Source: Candidatus Baldrarchaeota archaeon
GTDB lineage: Archaea > Asgardarchaeota > Baldrarchaeia > Baldrarchaeales > DXJG01
Reading direction: 5' to 3'
NCBI GenBank assembly: GCA_019056805.1
Contig: DXJG01000011.1
Span: 1 to 16,141, forward strand
DNA length: 16,141 bases
Below, one piece after another: positions 5,303 through 13,379 of the stretch; the stretch's first letter is position 1, and every line of letters begins with the position of its first letter. The position numbers were made by a program, and so were the translations under genes. Below the pieces are notes generated by a model. The model saw only the letters and a program-made list of their open reading frames with translations, did no database searches and was not told the origin of the DNA.

Positions 5303-6631
5303 ATGACATTACTTCATATCGGAATCGATGATACGGACTCACTTATTGGCGGTTGTACCACTTACATAGGTGCTAGGCTAGTTCATCGACTAGAAAAAGA
5401 AACAAAAGCCAAATTCATCGATTATCCAAACCTTATAAGATTAAACCCAAACATCCCATACAAAACAAGAGGAAACGGAGCTGTATGTCTAAGAATAAAC
5501 ATAGAAGAAAATATGATAGAAGATGTAGAAAACATTGTTATCGAAGAAGTAGAAGAAAACTCCGACCTAAAATGCGAAGAAACACATCCCGGAATCGTTT
5601 TCTTCAAAGGAAACGTCCCACCTGAACTTAAAAAATTCGCAAAGAAAGCTGTAACTGATGTCATAATGCTCGACGAAGCTCTAAAAATAGTAAACAAAAC
5701 CGGTGCAAAAATAAAAACCTACAAAAAGGGAAGAGGCATCATAGGGGCCCTGGCAGCCATCGGAAACACTTTAGAAAAAGACCACACATATGAACTGTTA
5801 TCCTACAGGTCCCCAGAACATTGGGGAACCCCCAGAACCATAGATGAAGACTCAGTTTATCTAATGGACAAGCTAACAAACCCAGAAACCTTCAACAACA
5901 TAGACAAGGAAACCAAAAGAATATTAATTACTCCCCACGGACCCGACCCAGTACTATATGGAATAAGAGGAGAAACCCCAGAAATAGTTAAACTAGCATC
6001 AAAAATCGTAGTATCATACGAGCCAATAGAAAGATGGGTAATATATAGAACAAACCAGGGAACAGATGAACACCTAACAAAACTAAGAAAAATAAAAGAA
6101 ATAAAACTATATCAACCAGCAAAAACCCTCGTAAAAATAATAGAACCACCTAAAATCATACCAGGAGGACATGTAATAGTAAAAGCGGCAGACAACACAG
6201 CAACCATCGATCTCGCTGCATACGAACCAACAGGAAACTTCAGAAAAATCATCCAAAAACTAATCCCAGGAGACACCATAATCGCGTACGGAGGAGTAAA
6301 ACCCCAAGAAAACAAACCTCTAACATTAAACCTGGAAAAAATAGAAATACTAAACTTAGCACCAAAAATAATATACAAAAACCCCAAATGCTCGAAATGC
6401 GGTAAAAGAATGAAATCAGCAGGAAAAAACCAAGGATACCGCTGCAAAAAATGCAAAACCCATGCAAAAAACATAGAAAAAGAAAAAATACAAATACCAA
6501 GAGAAATAAAGCCAGGAATATACCTACCGACACCAAGAGCACACAGACACCTTACTAAACCCCTTCAAAGATACGGCAGGGAAAAGAAAAACAAACCAAA
6601 AAAACTCATAGAAAAATGGCATTACCCCTAA
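5303..6631 (+). CDS. tiaS: tRNA(Ile2) agmatinylcytidine synthetase TiaS
   Basis: IGIDDTDS..GGCTTY, LIRLNPNIPYKTRGNGA, GRGIIGALAAIG, PHGPDPVLYGIRG, TNQGTDEHL, GGHV (OB fold), zinc ribbon CSKC..CKKC and RHLTKP. Confidence 0.96.
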   Translation: MTLLHIGIDDTDSLIGGCTTYIGARLVHRLEKETKAKFIDYPNLIRLNPNIPYKTRGNGAVCLRINIEENMIEDVENIVIEEVEENSDLKCEETHPGIVFFKGNVPPELKKFAKKAVTDVIMLDEALKIVNKTGAKIKTYKKGRGIIGALAAIGNTLEKDHTYELLSYRSPEHWGTPRTIDEDSVYLMDKLTNPETFNNIDKETKRILITPHGPDPVLYGIRGETPEIVKLASKIVVSYEPIERWVIYRTNQGTDEHLTKLRKIKEIKLYQPAKTLVKIIEPPKIIPGGHVIVKAADNTATIDLAAYEPTGNFRKIIQKLIPGDTIIAYGGVKPQENKPLTLNLEKIEILNLAPKIIYKNPKCSKCGKRMKSAGKNQGYRCKKCKTHAKNIEKEKIQIPREIKPGIYLPTPRAHRHLTKPLQRYGREKKNKPKKLIEKWHYP

Positions 6632-6685: not shown

Positions 6686-6703
6686 CAACGATAAATTTAA
6701 AAA
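6686..6703 (+). promoter_or_regulatory. Putative BRE/TATA promoter of tRNA-iMet
   Basis: CAACGATAAATTTAAAAA with TTTAAAA at 6696-6702. Typical archaeal spacing puts the start site near 6724-6728. Confidence 0.5.
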
Positions 6704-6726
6704 ACAAAAATATCACACACTAACAT

Positions 6727-6748
6727 AGCGGGGCAAAACACAGCGGGG
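6727..6748 (+). repeat. Direct repeat AGCGGGG (6727-6733 and 6742-6748), 8-nt spacer CAAAACAC; the repeat unit equals tRNA-iMet nt 1-7
   Basis: Seen directly: AGCGGGG-CAAAACAC-AGCGGGG. The upstream copy is a G-rich stretch in a flank that is otherwise almost free of G. Confidence 0.85.
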
Positions 6749-6779
6749 ACTACCCCAATACAAAATTGGGTAGCCGCAA
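6749..6779 (+). other. 31-nt non-canonical tRNA intron between nt 7 and 8
   Basis: Bulge-helix geometry: central helix GCGG(6743-46):CCGC(6774-77), 5' bulge GG|A, intron helix CUACCC(C)AAU:AUUGGGUAG, 3' bulge AA|U. Cutting after the second nt of each bulge joins G7 to U8 exactly. Confidence 0.85.
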
Positions 6780-6811
6780 TGGGGTAGCCAGGAGATCCCG
6801 CGGGGCTCATA

Positions 6812-6843
6812 AGCCCGACAGATACATCCTCTCGGGTTAAGAA
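6812..6843 (+). other. 32-nt canonical 37/38 tRNA intron
   Basis: Central helix CUCA:UAAG (one C:A mismatch), 5' bulge UA|A, intron helix GCCCGA:UCGGGU, 3' bulge AA|A. Confidence 0.92.
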
Positions 6844-6888
6844 ACCCCGAGATCGGAGGTTCAAATCCTCCCCCCGCTACCATATACC

Positions 6889-6920
6889 TTTACCTTTTTT
6901 GGTGGTTTTTTGTGGGTTTT
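6889..6920 (+). terminator. Oligo(T) terminator tracts after tRNA-iMet
   Basis: T6 runs at 6895-6900 and 6906-6911, immediately after CCA. Confidence 0.55.
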
Positions 6921-7466: not shown

Positions 7467-8942
7467 ATGAATACTAAGTTGACTAAGTTGGTAGGTGCGG
7501 CAATTATTGTGGTGCTACTTTCATTAACGGTCTATGGATGTTACGAATTATTGCTCAACGAGTCGGAGAAACCGTGCACAGCAAAGGTGAAAATGCATAT
7601 AATCCCGGTGGATGAGAAAGGAAAAGAGGTCCGGTGGAACTTCTGCACAGCAATACATAATTTTACCGAGTACTGGGCTAAGCCGCATAGCGAAGTAGTA
7701 TATCTAGGAACCAAAAGAACGGTGACATTGAATGTGCATAGAGAACTACTTATTGGAGGAAGATTGCTTATCCATGAATATGCCATCTTCCTGTATAATG
7801 GTACGCACTCGGGTGGAAAGCTGGTTCGTATAGAGCCTAGGGAGTACCGTATTGAACTTTCCATCAGAATACGTGTATATAGGGTATCTGAAAACTCACA
7901 TTCACCTCTAAGAAAAGTCGTACCACCCCTACTTAACTCGTCGTCAGAACCAGTAAAAGGTTATTGCTATGAGGAACTCGAAGAAGTTGTATATACGTCA
8001 GAATTGATGCCTGCTTTACAACTTCATTCAATAGGAGGAATTTCCGTTAGCGTCCACTTTGAAATAGGCAACTACTTATTCTATTCTCAAAAGTATAGAG
8101 AAGCAGATCTACCGGGTGAGTGGGGTCCTTGGCAGACATCTGGCGATAAGGCCACAAAATCTAACAATAAACTCACAACGGGATCAATTTCGGGTGGCAG
8201 TAAAAAGTGGATCTACGTAAACGTAGATTATAGATATGAGCGATGGTTTTACGGGGTGGATTGGGTCCAATGGTGGAGGGAAATAGTGACGCCAGTGAGT
8301 TTTGGAGGATATGACTGGGGTGAGTCTATATCATGCACTTACTGTGAAGGAACTCCTACAGGCTTTGTACAGAGCTATCCTAGGGGCACTGGAATGCCTA
8401 TCGAAATGAGCCTAGGTCCAGGCATCAGCGAGATTGAGAGATCAGGTATAAGCGTATCCTTCGAGGTGTCTTATGGTGTGGTCTCCCTGACTGTAGAGTT
8501 ATGGTATGAAATAGAGAGAGGTGAAGCTCTCTATCCTCCATCAATACTGGTTAATGTAGATACATGGTACGCTGACACTTTATATGTCTTCGATGCCAGC
8601 ACCGAGTGGAAGGTAGTGCATTTCACGTGGAGTGGCGGAGGTAGTGGTGGTATGGTTTTTAGGCGTGGTGTTTTTAGGGTTTCTGATTATTGGGTTAGGG
8701 AATGTATTTCTTGGTTTGTTAGGGATCTTGATCTTAATAGATTGGGTGATTTCTTTATTGTTGGTCTGGGTTGTGGTTATAGTCCTTTCCATAAGTATCT
8801 TGAAGATGTAGTTAGGGTTGAAGGTAAGGCTCGTGATATTGAGGTGTATACGGGTTACTATGAAGGGGTTAAGGTATCTGCTATTGCGACTCCTGGTGGT
8901 ATGGTTCATACGGAGCCTGTGGTGATTTTGGGAGGTTGCTAG
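7467..8942 (+). CDS. Hypothetical secreted or membrane-anchored protein (~395 aa) fused in frame to the N-terminal ~96 aa of a nucleoside phosphorylase
   Basis: N-terminal basic plus hydrophobic segment (KLTKLVGAAIIVVLLSLTVYGCY), sequons NFT, NGT and NSS, beta-rich aromatic body, then a GGGSGG linker. From ATG 8652 the sequence resembles a PNP/UDP N-terminus (YTGYYEGVKVSAIATPGG). Confidence 0.65.
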   Translation: MNTKLTKLVGAAIIVVLLSLTVYGCYELLLNESEKPCTAKVKMHIIPVDEKGKEVRWNFCTAIHNFTEYWAKPHSEVVYLGTKRTVTLNVHRELLIGGRLLIHEYAIFLYNGTHSGGKLVRIEPREYRIELSIRIRVYRVSENSHSPLRKVVPPLLNSSSEPVKGYCYEELEEVVYTSELMPALQLHSIGGISVSVHFEIGNYLFYSQKYREADLPGEWGPWQTSGDKATKSNNKLTTGSISGGSKKWIYVNVDYRYERWFYGVDWVQWWREIVTPVSFGGYDWGESISCTYCEGTPTGFVQSYPRGTGMPIEMSLGPGISEIERSGISVSFEVSYGVVSLTVELWYEIERGEALYPPSILVNVDTWYADTLYVFDASTEWKVVHFTWSGGGSGGMVFRRGVFRVSDYWVRECISWFVRDLDLNRLGDFFIVGLGCGYSPFHKYLEDVVRVEGKARDIEVYTGYYEGVKVSAIATPGGMVHTEPVVILGGC

Positions 8943-9560: not shown

Positions 9561-12500
9561 CTAGTTTTGTTCTTCGGTGGGGTGTATGATTTTTTGGTTG
9601 ATGAGGATTTTTAGGGTTTTTAGGGTTTTTAGTGGGTTTATTTTTTCTTTTTTGGTTACTTCTGTTAGTAGTTTTGCTATGGTGAATGATCCTTCTATTT
9701 CTGTGATTTCTTTCGCTACTTTTAATATTTTTCTTTTGATTCCTCTAATTCTTGGAGGGATTTCTGTGACTTCGTATTTTGTGAAGATGTGTTTTGGGAA
9801 GCTTTCTTTTACTATGTTTTTGGCTTTGTCAAAAATTGATATTTCGAAGGTGTTGGTTTTAAGGTTTTTTTCGAATTTGTCTTCAAATTTGTCTAGGAAG
9901 TTTCTTAGGGATTCTTTTATTTCTGGGAGTAGTTTTCCGGGTGCTATGAGTATTGAGTAGGCGTATTTTCCTGAGTGGAATGTTAGTACTTTGGGTTCTG
10001 GGGTTTCGTAGTATATTTCTCCAATTTCTCCTTCTCCTGTGCCTCCGATTTCGGAGTAGAATCCTCTTACTGCTTGGACAAATCCTGCTACGATGTTTGG
10101 GTCTGTAGGTGTCTTTTTGAAGGAGTATTCGAATATGCAGCGTCCGCTTTCTTTGTCGACGACTAGGAGAGATTCTAGGCTGTTGAGTTCTAATATGAGT
10201 TCGTATTCTCGTAGAAGTTTTTTGTTTTCTGTTTTTATTTTGTGTTTTCTTTTTGATATGTATCCGAAGGTTCCTATAAAGATGATAGATGTGATTAATA
10301 TTATTGTGGTAAGCCAGCGTGGAAGTAGGGATTTCGAAGTTGAAATAGAGGGTTTGATTGTGATGTTGTAGGTGGTGTGTGCGGAGGTTTTATCGGTCAT
10401 TCCTTCGTAAACTACTGTTATTTGTATTTTGGACATTTCGTTATTTGTTGGTATGGTGTATGAGAATTCTCCTTTCGTGTTTGTTACGGTTTCGTATTCA
10501 AATTGTTTCTTTGTTCCATTTTTGTAAGTCACTAAGACTATTATTTTGATGGTTGCCATGCCTATTGGATCTTTGTTTTCTGTGGTTAGAGTTCCTGATA
10601 TTAATATGGTGTTGCCAGCAGTTACTTCTTGTGGGACATTAACTGTAAGTATTGTGCGTGTTTTTGGTAGAATGTAAAGTGGAATTTCAAGTGTTTGTGG
10701 AAGATAGTATGGTGCCTCTATTACTACGTTTATTGAATAGTTGCCGGGTTGGAGTCCTGTTAGGTTTAAAGTGCAGCTATAGTTTTGATAGTTAAATGTT
10801 GCAAGCCATTTATGGTTGTTTACGGTTAATGTGATGCTGCAGTTTTCTAATGGAGTGTTTCGGAAAGAATCTATGATGTTAAAGTGTATTGTTATTGTTT
10901 CGTTTTCATATTGTTTAAGGACTTGGGGTTGATATGTTATTTTCATTTTTCCATAAATTGTTAGGTATCCTTTCCATGTTTTGGTTTCATGATTTGGGCA
11001 GTTTACCATGATGGAGATGGAGTAGTTGCCGACATATTGTGTTATGTTAAAGTAGATGGTTGATGAGTTGCTAAAGATTGTAAGTACTGATTCGTTGAGA
11101 TAAATTGTGCCATTAAAGTGGGTTATTGGGTTTCCCCATTGATCTGTATAGTTTATTGATATTGTAAACTGTTGTCCGGCTTCTATTTCTTTGGGGCATA
11201 ATACATCAAGATTCGTTTTCTTGGGCATTATGCGAATTGTGATGTTTATTTCTTTGGGTTCATAGCTCTCTTTTGAACATTGAATTGTCATATTGTACGT
11301 TCCTAGTTCATGAAAAGTTGTTATATTTATGTATGCCGTGCCATTATATTCGAAAATGTATTTTGATGTCCCAATGTATCCTATAACGGTTGCATTTTCA
11401 AGATGTGTGCCATTAATATCTGTGTAATAGATGGTTATTGTTAATGGGGTTTCATAGTTTCCAATTATGGTTTCATTTGGCATGCTTACATTTGTTGAAT
11501 ACACAAATGTGATGTTAAAGCTGAGGATTGCATCTTCATATCCCGTTTTTTGAGCGTATACGGTCAAGGAATGATTCCCAGAAGAATATCCCTTTGTGGT
11601 GAGGTTGGCGGCATATATACCTTCTCCTTCATCTTTGAAGTAAGTAACTTGGTTGTTCCACGTTGTCCAGACCGTTGCACCTTCTATTCCGGTATCGTGA
11701 ACTTTATCAACATATTTTACCTTTACTGTTGCATTTTCACCTATACAATAATAGGGAGCAGTATGGCTTTCAAGAAATGCGGAATACACAAATAAAACAT
11801 TACCAATGTACAGGTAACCAGCTTCGAATCCTGTAAGAAAAAGTGTTGCAATAATGTATGTTCCATTTGTAAATGACTTATCTGGTGTCCAGTAGATTCC
11901 TAGTGATGACTTATTGTTGGTTGGTTGCGAAGTATTGTAATAGAGAATATTATCTGAGGAGTTGTATACTAAGAAGGTGAGGGTCCCGTTCCAATCATGA
12001 GCTCCTGGTATTAGAAGAATTAAAAAGGAATTTTCTTCGTCTATAATAACGGGTGAGGGAGAATCGATTTTTTTAACGTAGTTGGGACTAGTGAACTCTA
12101 TGCGCCAGTTATCGTAAACATATAAAGTAATGTTTTTCCAGTTTGCTGCAGTAATTGGTGTTTCCTCTATGTCTGTTATATTCCAGCATCTGGAGACATT
12201 CCAATCTTTTGGAACTTTGAATGTAACACTACAATTTGTAAAGGTTGACGGAAAGGTTTCAGAGGGTGAAACGTTCCAGAAAACTGTAGTAGTATCAGCA
12301 TCTGCTAAAAATCTTGTCAGACACCGACTGTCTTTGTCGTGTTTCATAAGGTAATTTAGATCAAAGGTTATGTTCCAAAGAGAAGTTATGTTAAACGTTA
12401 TACTTTCGCTATTGTTGAGTACGCCCTCTAGTTCTATGATTCCACTATTCGGTACTTGTGTTCCGTTAACTTGAAGATTTATTTCTGAAGGTGAGAGGGA

Positions 12501-13379
12501 TAGGTCGAGTGGTTGAAGATTTAAATCCATGACCATATCGATATTTGAGATGTTGTACGTGTTTGATATCCAGACATCTTCTTCGTTTTCTCCATCCGTA
12601 GCGTCGTTAACACAATACCACCAAAAATCGTATGCTTTTGGCGCGGGAGGTCCTGCTTCGGCTTCTAACCGTATGAAAAATGTGTTATTATCCGTTTCGT
12701 TGGTGAGAAGTGTAACATTGATATTTAGTGATAGAAAAAACTGGTCTAAAGAGGATGCGGTTTCAAACAGGGTTTCTCCACTTTTAATTATTTTGTCAGG
12801 ATACGAAGTATTAGAGAGAGAATTCCACGTAGAGTTTAAGATAGCCCACCTCAAAGTAAAACTACCGTCAACGTAAACCAAGATTTGTACCGTATCTAGG
12901 TGGCATGACATAGGTAGGGTAAAAGAAGCGTATACGGTTAGATTCTGGTCATTACTATTTTCAAAGAATTTTACGTAACCATCTGGACTATCCTCTTCTA
13001 TTATTTTTGAGAAATTTTGCGGTGTTATTTTTTCAAATTTAAGCCTTATATTACTCGTACTATATCCATAAGTCTTTACTTGAGTAATATTGGCAAACTT
13101 GTCAAATCTTCTATTTGTATCGATAAAAAAATGATTCGTGGAAGCATTACCAAGCGATCTATTTTGTTGTCCATAAAGAATTGTCAAAATTCTTGATCCA
13201 TTTCCCTTAATATATGGTTGAAATGTTTCTATCGAGTCTGTTTCAATAATATTATCATTTTCTAAGCATCTGGAGGGAGGAGAAGTTACCCAGAGGACGC
13301 TGAATATTAATGGTAAAATTAATAGTATGAAAATTTGCCTAGTTCTTCGGGAACTCTTTAACAACTGGGTACCTCCCAA
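9561..13379 (-). CDS. Large single-pass surface protein: signal anchor, ~1000-aa glycosylated ectodomain with about five Ig-like repeats, TM helix, cytoplasmic longin-like and winged-helix-like domains
   Basis: N-terminal RRTRQIFILLILPLIFSVLW, many NxS/T sequons, and repeats of the type (V/I)xYxD..G.P(I/L)..A.V..Y.(L/I)T(V/I)...K.GY. TM WLTTIILITSIIFIGTFGYI (~10260-10315) is followed by SKRKHK, then LLVVDKESGRCIFEYSF..DPNIVAGFVQAVRGFYSEI. The likely start is TTG 13364, 6 nt after GGAGGT. Confidence 0.8.
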   Translation of the reverse strand: MGGTQLLKSSRRTRQIFILLILPLIFSVLWVTSPPSRCLENDNIIETDSIETFQPYIKGNGSRILTILYGQQNRSLGNASTNHFFIDTNRRFDKFANITQVKTYGYSTSNIRLKFEKITPQNFSKIIEEDSPDGYVKFFENSNDQNLTVYASFTLPMSCHLDTVQILVYVDGSFTLRWAILNSTWNSLSNTSYPDKIIKSGETLFETASSLDQFFLSLNINVTLLTNETDNNTFFIRLEAEAGPPAPKAYDFWWYCVNDATDGENEEDVWISNTYNISNIDMVMDLNLQPLDLSLSPSEINLQVNGTQVPNSGIIELEGVLNNSESITFNITSLWNITFDLNYLMKHDKDSRCLTRFLADADTTTVFWNVSPSETFPSTFTNCSVTFKVPKDWNVSRCWNITDIEETPITAANWKNITLYVYDNWRIEFTSPNYVKKIDSPSPVIIDEENSFLILLIPGAHDWNGTLTFLVYNSSDNILYYNTSQPTNNKSSLGIYWTPDKSFTNGTYIIATLFLTGFEAGYLYIGNVLFVYSAFLESHTAPYYCIGENATVKVKYVDKVHDTGIEGATVWTTWNNQVTYFKDEGEGIYAANLTTKGYSSGNHSLTVYAQKTGYEDAILSFNITFVYSTNVSMPNETIIGNYETPLTITIYYTDINGTHLENATVIGYIGTSKYIFEYNGTAYINITTFHELGTYNMTIQCSKESYEPKEINITIRIMPKKTNLDVLCPKEIEAGQQFTISINYTDQWGNPITHFNGTIYLNESVLTIFSNSSTIYFNITQYVGNYSISIMVNCPNHETKTWKGYLTIYGKMKITYQPQVLKQYENETITIHFNIIDSFRNTPLENCSITLTVNNHKWLATFNYQNYSCTLNLTGLQPGNYSINVVIEAPYYLPQTLEIPLYILPKTRTILTVNVPQEVTAGNTILISGTLTTENKDPIGMATIKIIVLVTYKNGTKKQFEYETVTNTKGEFSYTIPTNNEMSKIQITVVYEGMTDKTSAHTTYNITIKPSISTSKSLLPRWLTTIILITSIIFIGTFGYISKRKHKIKTENKKLLREYELILELNSLESLLVVDKESGRCIFEYSFKKTPTDPNIVAGFVQAVRGFYSEIGGTGEGEIGEIYYETPEPKVLTFHSGKYAYSILIAPGKLLPEIKESLRNFLDKFEDKFEKNLKTNTFEISIFDKAKNIVKESFPKHIFTKYEVTEIPPRIRGIKRKILKVAKEITEIEGSFTIAKLLTEVTKKEKINPLKTLKTLKILINQKIIHPTEEQN

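Follow-up and report, generated by a model that had tools for sequence, protein, structure and literature searches.

How can a tRNA be spliced when the helix presented to its endonuclease is built from bases of its own acceptor stem, and where would such an intron come from? These questions are raised by an initiator tRNA (tRNA-iMet) gene in a 16,141-nt stretch of archaeal DNA, hereafter the window, which is contig DXJG01000011.1 (C1) of the Candidatus Baldrarchaeota assembly GCA_019056805.1 (G000). At 6742–6882 on the forward strand, we identified a tRNA-iMet(CAU) gene in three exons and two introns, the first of which lies between tRNA nucleotides 7 and 8. Judged from its sequence, the locus is probably a functional single-copy initiator tRNA gene whose transcript carries two protein-spliced introns, and it is very likely that the 31-nt 7/8 intron is presented to the endonuclease in a relaxed bulge-helix-bulge (BHB) motif, cut by EndA and the exons joined by RtcB. 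The leader holds an exact copy of the 7-nt exon 1, and we tentatively propose that this duplicate is a dedicated helper for an intron invading the acceptor stem and that the intron was born locally from copies of exon 1 and the old leader.

Results

A Relaxed Splicing Motif at the 7/8 Junction

We scanned 6700–6900 for 4-bp helices with a 3-nt bulge behind each strand, cleaved between its second and third bases, and in this blind scan the 7/8 intron ranked first. Its central helix is complete (4/4), pairing GCGG of exon 1 (6743–6746) with CCGC of the intron (6774–6777); the bulges read GG/A and AA/U, and a 6-bp intron helix, CUACCC:GGGUAG (6750–6755 : 6768–6773), abuts the 5′ bulge. Just 1 of 1,000,000 shuffled inserts gave a 4/4 central helix with a helix of at least 6 bp at the positions that join G7 to U8, and the same geometry with a helix of at least 4 bp arose 42 times in 10^6. 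An earlier description made from the letters of the window (the sequence-only reading) had named the gene, both introns, the exact G7–U8 join and the relaxed nature of the motif; we could reproduce all of these, with exact coordinates. The mutual exclusion that it had claimed between splicing helix and acceptor stem is likewise real, as the helix uses G2–G5, which pair with C68–C71 in the tRNA. Its motif geometry (GCGG:CCGC, GG/A, AA/U and the hairpin) stands as well, except that the 3′ bulge is not simply open: in local folds, a D-arm helix with its register shifted by one (G9–U13 : A21–C25) begins right after the AAU bulge. The scan gave no exon-side outer helix between the leader and the bases after U8 (0 bp), leaving the strict hBHBh′ form incomplete, and the 7/8 motif is a relaxed, bulge-helix-loop-like one. 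The D-arm helix, if stacked on the central helix, could replace the absent outer helix.

The intron strand CCGC (6774–6777) can also pair with G26–G29 (GCGG, 6800–6803), and together with the D stem this alternative makes a second BHB-like geometry, ranked second in the scan, that would excise the D arm (6780–6805) and represents a potential mis-splicing trap.

Gene Layout and Identity

All parts of the gene are read from the forward strand. Exon 1 (6742–6748, AGCGGGG) supplies tRNA nucleotides 1–7, with G2–G5 as the 5′ strand of the central splicing helix and G6 and G7 in the 5′ bulge. It is followed by intron 1 (6749–6779, 31 nt), which comprises the intron helix, the CCGC strand and the first two bases of the 3′ bulge (A6778 A6779 / U6780). 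Exon 2 (6780–6811; nucleotides 8–37) contains the D arm, the 5′ strand of the anticodon stem and the anticodon CAU (6808–6810), and is the same in an intronless orthologue, L217. Intron 2 (6812–6843, 32 nt) occupies the canonical 37/38 position and was found by ARAGORN with introns allowed; by sequence inspection, it has a central helix CUCA:UAAG with one C·A mismatch, bulges UA/A and AA/A, a 6-bp intron helix (6813–6818 : 6832–6837) and the anticodon stem as its outer helix. Exon 3 (6844–6882; nucleotides 38–76) covers the 3′ strand of the anticodon stem, the T arm and the acceptor strand, ending in CCCCGCU (6873–6879), A73 and an encoded CCA that extends through 6882 (given as 6880–6882). 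Oligo-T tracts serve as terminators in archaea, and a T6 run at 6895–6900 (+) is a likely one.

With both inserts removed in silico, ARAGORN drew a 78-nt tRNA-Met(cat) with the perfect cloverleaf that had been predicted, and an identical gene exists as contiguous DNA in a sister clade (L217, below). Archaeal initiators are marked by an A1:U72 end pair and a G:C-rich anticodon stem. The gene has the former as A6742:U6879, and in its anticodon stem GGGG pairs with CCCC, covering the three consecutive G:C pairs 29–31 : 39–41; the remaining two CAU tRNAs of the genome (C1:14698–14775 and C17:67335–67445) have acceptors of the G1:C72 type. Whether another, intronless iMet gene exists had been left for checking: searches with the anticodon arm, the 3′ end, and the T arm plus acceptor revealed no second iMet-like gene in the 91%-complete assembly.

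The expectation that standard scanners would miss or truncate the gene was borne out for ARAGORN and the Rfam tRNA model. ARAGORN missed the gene in its default mode and truncated it to 6778–6882 with introns allowed, and the Rfam model left it unreported at the gathering threshold (27.8 bits against a cut-off of 29, with a wrong alignment at 6778–6879). An essential single-copy gene that common tRNA finders do not see, or see truncated, would cause genomes of this clade to be scored as being without an initiator tRNA. More widely in the G000 genome, we counted about 37 tRNA matches, many with D-loop introns of about 30 nt (C13:42280, C17:29602, C6:28887, C9:4520, C9:66875 and others); ARAGORN reported 11 tRNA genes without and 18 with intron search.

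The Intron Clade and Its Intron-Free Sisters

The gene for TiaS (tRNA-Ile2 agmatidine synthetase; 5303–6631, +) lies directly upstream of iMet, and we used it as an anchor to collect related loci. The intron clade was defined as the contigs whose TiaS is at least 90% like a 93%-identical representative. The 7/8 intron was present in seven independent metagenome assemblies from at least six samples (sources JGI 3300004069, 3300037558 and 3300003332; ENA ERZ27227317, ERZ27227318 and ERZ940666), in three sequence variants of 31, 32 and 31 nt. Across the clade, the exons are identical and the leader AGCGGGG-caaaacac-AGCGGGG is common to all; within the intron, no variation is seen in the bulges, the central helix or the first three stem pairs, one variant has an A·G mismatch at stem pair 4, and the loop differs at about half of its positions and by one base in length (variants L210 and L212). 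The canonical intron and the trailer have strongly diverged, the lengths of the former among relatives being 32, 33, 30 and 0 nt. None of the seven assemblies contains a second iMet copy.

In the sister clade, TiaS is 81% identical and the gene order is fully conserved over five loci. In all five, the exons are the same as far as the contig reaches, and AGCGGGG runs directly into UGGGGUAGCC. Three of these loci have the canonical intron only, L220 ends before the anticodon loop, and L217 has no intron at all. The exact splice junctions are confirmed, because L217 is the predicted spliced product as contiguous DNA (61.9 bits with the Rfam tRNA model). The order-mate G004 lacks the 7/8 intron and has an intron in the anticodon stem; G001, a same-genus bin with 9% contamination, has two intronless iMet copies on short contigs; the same-genus assemblies G002 and G003 contain no assembled iMet, the G003 contig stopping inside TiaS. 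By parsimony, the 7/8 intron would have been gained in the G000 lineage after its split from the sister clade, and in all probability intron and leader copy appeared there together and recently.

Two observations on these loci stand apart. The 3′ CCA is encoded in the intron-bearing clade (GCTACCA) and not in the sister clade (GCTACTA; GCTTCCA in L218). The TiaS–iMet linkage is kept in both clades and in the Bathyarchaeia metagenome-assembled genomes (MAGs) G401, G402 and G404, and not in G004; the three MAGs probably belong to another phylum, and G401, the one tested, lacks the ESCRT-II protein EAP30.

A Copy of Exon 1 in the Leader

The leader feature that the sequence-only reading had overlooked is an exact copy of exon 1, AGCGGGG, at 6727–6733 (+), 15 nt upstream of exon 1 and at the predicted transcript start. 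It is separated from the exon by the spacer caaaacac (6734–6741, +), invariant in 7/7 assemblies of the clade, and copy and spacer together are 100% conserved (15/15). Further upstream, at 6692–6705 (+), lies the element ataaatttaaaaaa of the BRE/TATA type, a putative promoter that is conserved in L210 and the sister clade. Motifs like aaacTTTAAAAA precede the mature 5′ end of other G000 tRNA genes by 25–27 nt (up to 35 nt), and here 22 nt lie between the end of the TATA-like element aaatttaaaaaa and the copy; with this spacing, transcription should start at the copy or right beside it. The element ends 38 nt ahead of A1 in the sister clade and 37 nt ahead of it here, and so the length of the leader is ancestral, with the copy taking up its first bases.

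A and G make up 57% and 8% of the intergenic strand, and the genome contains 43 occurrences of the heptamer; the chance of finding it within 60 nt is accordingly about 6e-4. None of the 23 other G000 tRNA genes has an upstream copy of its own 5′ strand, exact or with one mismatch, and among 44 T-arm candidates two exact copies were seen for iMet only. All genes with a 7/8 intron have the leader copy, one extra in the G000 clade and two in the Bathyarchaeia gene described below. Upstream of iMet genes without the 7/8 intron, we found none in about 45 genes (five sister loci, G004, the two of G001, 19 of the Bathyarchaeia order and about 18 others of the phylum).

In Methanothrix and Methanomassiliicoccus, AGCGGG is conserved 15–35 nt upstream of iMet, near the TATA box (L035, L047, L054, L103, L106 and others; L060, L110, L116 and L125). 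We rejected these ordinary genes as support: the search pattern had selected them, and their number is about that expected from chance and shared descent.

The Same Design in a Second Lineage

The sequence-only reading did not list 7/8 among the catalogued intron positions, and we found that the position is not unique to this genome. Scanning one genome per species for 185,579 species with the pattern AGCGGG, 10–40 nt, GGGGTAG, 8–38 nt and GGGCTCATA, we found one further 7/8-intron gene, in a MAG labelled Bathyarchaeia (CAYPFQ010000050.1; L034, 1020–1150), and the same organism is represented by the metagenome contig Ga0209314_10007823 (L161). Its 31-nt intron reads U-CUACUCA-cccauagcga-UGAGUAG-CCGC-AA. 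Compared with G000, the central helix and the 3′ bulge AA/U are the same and the 5′ bulge is GG/U instead of GG/A; the stems have CUAC:GUAG in common, pair 5 has changed in a compensatory manner from C:G to U:A, and an A:U pair is added. The evidence for covariation comes from four distinct sequences of two lineages. The extra exon copies are two repeats of AGCGGGGAAU, making three tandem AGCGGGG with a 10-nt period. The gene has no canonical intron and has two TATA-like elements upstream.

The exons of the Bathyarchaeia gene are typical of its own order, unlike those of G000, and the gene as a whole was therefore not transferred; none of the 19 other iMet genes of the order has a 7/8 intron. 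Transfer of the intron and parallel origin are both compatible with these data. No further 7/8 introns were detected in 400 genomes of the phylum or 23 of the Bathyarchaeia order, with patterns that divergent genes would escape: both need AGCGGG(G) and a D-arm start of the type GGG-N-W-AG, the phylum pattern also GGGCTCATA and the order pattern also CCGC.

Three sets of candidates were discarded. Of 40 matches in a pattern scan of metagenomes, 39 were chance hits in GC-rich bacterial genes and L161 alone was real. In four other Bathyarchaeia MAGs, AGCGGGG is followed by a 38-nt insertion with an ambiguous boundary, from 4/5 to 7/8, whose sole BHB-like fit is at 4/5; those MAGs keep the TiaS–iMet linkage. 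A 20-nt insert between acceptor strand and D stem in Micrarchaeota (L045 and L142) is ambiguous from 7/8 to 9/10, with the best fit by eye at 9/10. The iMet genes of L044, L064, L129 and L141, all Bathyarchaeia MAGs, have four insertions each, including the 38-nt one, and in the host phylum L021, L022, L029 and L014 are heavily interrupted: L029 has an insert inside the 3′ acceptor strand, L014 has three introns, and two iMet genes of f18 genomes have inserts soon after the 5′ acceptor strand.

Predicted Folding and a Proposed Mechanism

We compared nearest-neighbor folds of transcripts with and without the leader copy; they are predictions for an organism of unknown growth temperature and are counted as support, not proof. 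The copy (6727–6733) is paired with CCCCGCU (6873–6879) in both the minimum free energy (MFE) fold and the BHB fold, and without it the 3′ acceptor strand must mispair. For a G000 transcript starting at A1 (6742), forming the BHB costs +2.2 (37 °C) to +4.2 (80 °C) kcal/mol and the central helix is occupied at no more than 0.02. When the transcript starts at 6727, the cost is +0.5 kcal/mol at 37 °C and the occupancy 0.45, 0.28 and 0.17 at 37, 60 and 75 °C, and with a scrambled copy the occupancy is at most 0.04. The Bathyarchaeia gene behaves similarly, the cost falling from +2.6 kcal/mol (occupancy at most 0.01) without an extra copy to 0.0 kcal/mol with one (0.68, 0.43 and 0.13). A side observation is that U6726 could lengthen the surrogate helix by pairing with A73.

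The steps beyond the predicted folds are our inference. Exon nucleotides 2–5 (GCGG) would pair with the intron CCGC, leaving G6 G7/A and A A/U8 as 3-nt bulges; the 5′ side would be closed by the 6-bp intron hairpin and the 3′ side, if at all, by the D-arm helix from G9. A two-subunit EndA would cut after G7 and before U8 and RtcB would join the ends, the canonical intron being removed in the usual way. A helper would address two problems: the splicing helix uses acceptor-stem bases, and the cleaved 7-nt exon would otherwise be unheld. The leader copy could hold the 3′ acceptor strand CCCCGCU and thereby free exon 1 for the splicing helix, and after the EndA cut the 22-nt 5′ fragment would stay tethered to the tRNA body. 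The true exon 1 would then displace the copy next to U8, RtcB would ligate, the authentic strand would take the acceptor stem and RNase P would remove the 15-nt leader. That the copy resolves both the acceptor-stem clash and the loose 7-nt exon may well be right, and we see the chances as about even.

Splicing Enzymes and Host

G000 has two EndA genes, in the regions C9:197884–198129 and C9:13779–14039. The 184-aa protein most closely resembles the catalytic subunits of the enzymes from A. pernix, S. tokodaii and P. aerophilum (E 1e-44 against the A. pernix subunit 3P1Z_B), aligns without gaps through the Crenarchaea-specific loop and has a lysine at both the K44 and the R46 positions. In the 178-aa protein, valine replaces the catalytic histidine, as expected of a putative structural subunit. 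RtcB is also encoded (608 bits). The Crenarchaea-specific loop and Lys44 confer cleavage of non-canonical and bulge-helix-loop introns, and relaxed, bulge-helix-loop-like motifs are cleaved by (αβ)2 EndA (PMC3241643). The host endonuclease is thus predicted to be of broad specificity. Because RNase P would have to remove the copy-bearing leader, we note that the window also encodes an archaeal RNase P RNA (210–601, +; 178 bits), with 392 nt against a 288-position model and several long insertions.

The assembly comprises 18 contigs and 1.92 Mb with 35% G+C, and among 199,900 species genomes its relatives are three of the same genus and one of the same order only. Its TiaS has close relatives in metagenomes of Guaymas Basin sediment and hydrothermal vents, and for members of the sister cluster NCBI submitters have used the names Baldrarchaeota, Odinarchaeota or Thaumarchaeota. 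EAP30 was detected in G000 (97 bits) and G004 (89 bits) and was not found in the Bathyarchaeia genomes tested. On the basis of names and this one marker, we place the uncultured, hydrothermal host among the Asgard archaea, as one of the Baldrarchaeia kind. Placement in Thermoproteota, suggested by TiaS homologues of Bathyarchaeia and Methanomethylicota at 55–60% identity, was dropped in view of the sister-clade names and EAP30. Elsewhere in the window, a 491-aa open reading frame (ORF; 7467–8942, +) has no Pfam match, and one of 1272 aa (9561–13379, −) has only a weak CarboxypepD_reg-like stretch.

Hints of a Possible Local Origin

The intron and its surroundings share sequence. GGGUAGCC in the intron (6768–6775, the 3′ arm and CC) repeats exon nucleotides 10–17 (6782–6789), and the 5′ arm of the intron is the complement of G9–G15. 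In a MAFFT alignment, the sister-clade leader acgaCCCCAccacaacaa and its exon 1 align with the G000 intron acuaCCCCAauacaaaauu...AGCCGCAA; the similarity has a p of about 0.01–0.02 for two variants and 0.11 for the third, and none was seen for the Bathyarchaeia intron. The 5′ region of the Bathyarchaeia gene is made of 10-nt units, mostly led by AGC (AGCGGGGAAU, AGCGGGGAAU, AGCGGGGUCU, ACUCACCCAU, AGCGAUGAGU and AGCCGCAAUG), and degenerate AGC-led 10-mers run on through the intron. It is conceivable, if on thin grounds, that exon 1 was duplicated upstream of the old leader, that the old exon 1 decayed to CCGC and that the leader was captured as an intron.

Discussion

Several observations weigh against the reading of the locus as a helper-assisted splicing substrate. 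The motif is relaxed and has no leader outer helix; its cleavage hinges on an enzyme specificity predicted from sequence, and splicing itself, the start of the transcript and the order of processing are likewise predicted. In the transcript without the leader copy, the MFE fold prefers the acceptor stem and pairs the 5′ arm of the intron with the D-arm strand G9–G15, to which that arm is complementary. The folding benefit is weak in variant L210 (0.10 against 0.01–0.03 at 60 °C, and none at 37 °C), and in the Bathyarchaeia gene the effect is lost at 37 °C when both extra copies are included; by eye, one of that gene's TATA-like elements would direct initiation to the true A1, in which case the copies would not be transcribed. 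The two lineages are two independent observations, and fewer if the intron was transferred with the copy. Finally, a single duplication event could create both intron and copy, and their co-occurrence then needs no function.

These points lead to the rival that deserves most attention, in which the 7/8 intron is real and the upstream AGCGGGG is a leftover of the same local duplication from which the intron arose, or a promoter-proximal constraint, without any part in splicing, which would proceed by transient opening of the acceptor stem. The region does resemble a patchwork of local copies, with AGCGGGG twice and GGGUAGCC in both intron and exon, the Bathyarchaeia gene has its periodic units, and the 5′ half of the G000 intron resembles the sister-clade leader; conservation, moreover, covers everything between the TATA-like element and exon 1 and thus extends beyond the copy. 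A passive leftover fits less well with 15/15 conservation of copy and spacer while the intron loop, canonical intron and trailer diverge strongly, with the recurrence of copies in a second phylum, where spacer and copy number differ, or with the loss of the predicted occupancy gain when the copy is scrambled, and it would leave the 7-nt exon untethered at cleavage, paired to nothing except the intron. We regard a role-free copy as plausible though somewhat doubtful. We consider it very improbable that the upstream copy is itself the real exon 1 of a gene with a 46-nt intron (6734–6779). That arrangement gives the same mature sequence and would place the exon at the predicted start, as in a leaderless tRNA, and its central helix is possible, but no intron helix would stand at the 5′ bulge, since bases from 6735 onward do not pair with 6773 and before; the BHB scan returned no such pair, and in the Bathyarchaeia gene a hairpin adjoins the proximal copy only.

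The two remaining alternatives concern the gene as a whole. It might be a decaying or silent copy, with the working iMet in the unassembled ~9% of the genome, and tRNA genes are often missing from MAGs, the present one being 91% complete. Against this stand exons with 100% identity both within the clade and to the intronless orthologue, a promoter, leader, splice-motif stems and terminator that are kept while unconstrained parts diverge, the same TiaS synteny as for the intronless gene, and the lack of a second iMet copy in 7/7 assemblies; we give this possibility very little credence. An assembly or binning artefact, in favour of which we found nothing, can practically be dismissed, as the same architecture recurs in contigs from six or more different samples and assemblers.

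If the proposal of a helper and a local birth is true, it describes the gain of a tRNA intron without a mobile element, on the time scale of a genus and with a possible repeat in a second phylum. Protein-dependent tRNA splicing would here be pushed to the point where the substrate motif and the acceptor stem cannot coexist, and the leader copy suggests a simple RNA-encoded solution to that conflict. The syntenic orthologues with identical exons, having neither the 7/8 intron nor the leader copy, offer a rare before-and-after view of a recent intron gain.

Archaeal non-canonical tRNA introns were reportedly treated by Marck and Grosjean in 2003 and by Sugahara in 2008. In kind, the 7/8 intron belongs to a known class, the protein-spliced tRNA introns of archaea with a relaxed motif, and its host has an enzyme of the matching type. 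With the members of this class that are cut by (αβ)2 EndA, as covered in a review (PMC4090602) and in work on the enzyme (PMC3241643), it shares a 4-bp helix between two 3-nt bulges, an intron hairpin and cleavage sites whose use restores the cloverleaf, as well as a host with a catalytic EndA with the crenarchaeal loop, a structural subunit, RtcB and a coexisting canonical intron. It differs from them in its position at the acceptor/D junction, in a central helix made from acceptor-stem bases, in having no leader outer helix, in its Asgard host and in the leader copy of exon 1. The review names introns at 20/21, 22/23, 25/26, 29/30, 30/31, 45/46, 53/54, 56/57, 59/60 "etc." and 3/4, and 7/8 is not among the positions named in that text, whose all-positions figure may list it, as may the intron databases (PMC4090602). 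The nearest likeness is the 3/4 intron of Thermoproteales tRNAs, which the same review calls "an extreme case," citing Sugahara 2008: as described by this citing review, it too lies in the 5′ acceptor region, leaves a very short first exon and has a motif that competes with the acceptor stem, and it differs in position and lineage.

A 2026 census of tRNA introns in Asgard archaea likewise describes many introns, there in the D arm, that are often missed by standard annotation, and gains that are recent and repeated, with the mode of their arrival left as an open question; neither iMet, initiator tRNA nor position 7 comes up in its main text, and no leader copies were found in it under those words or "acceptor." The split and permuted tRNA genes of Nanoarchaeum, Caldivirga and Thermofilum resemble the proposed helper in that sequence outside the tRNA holds the pieces together and builds the BHB, and in T. 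pendens and N. equitans it is again the essential, single-copy iMet that is involved (PMC3218864, PMC4390854). The present gene, in contrast, is contiguous and colinear, and its proposed helper is a duplicate of an exon strand that pairs with the gene's own 3′ end and not a complementary leader or trailer. As far as can be seen, three features of the locus are new: the well-documented presence of an intron at 7/8 in an initiator tRNA that is both essential and single-copy, the strict association of this intron with a copy of exon 1 in the leader, and an orthologous, intron-free sister gene.

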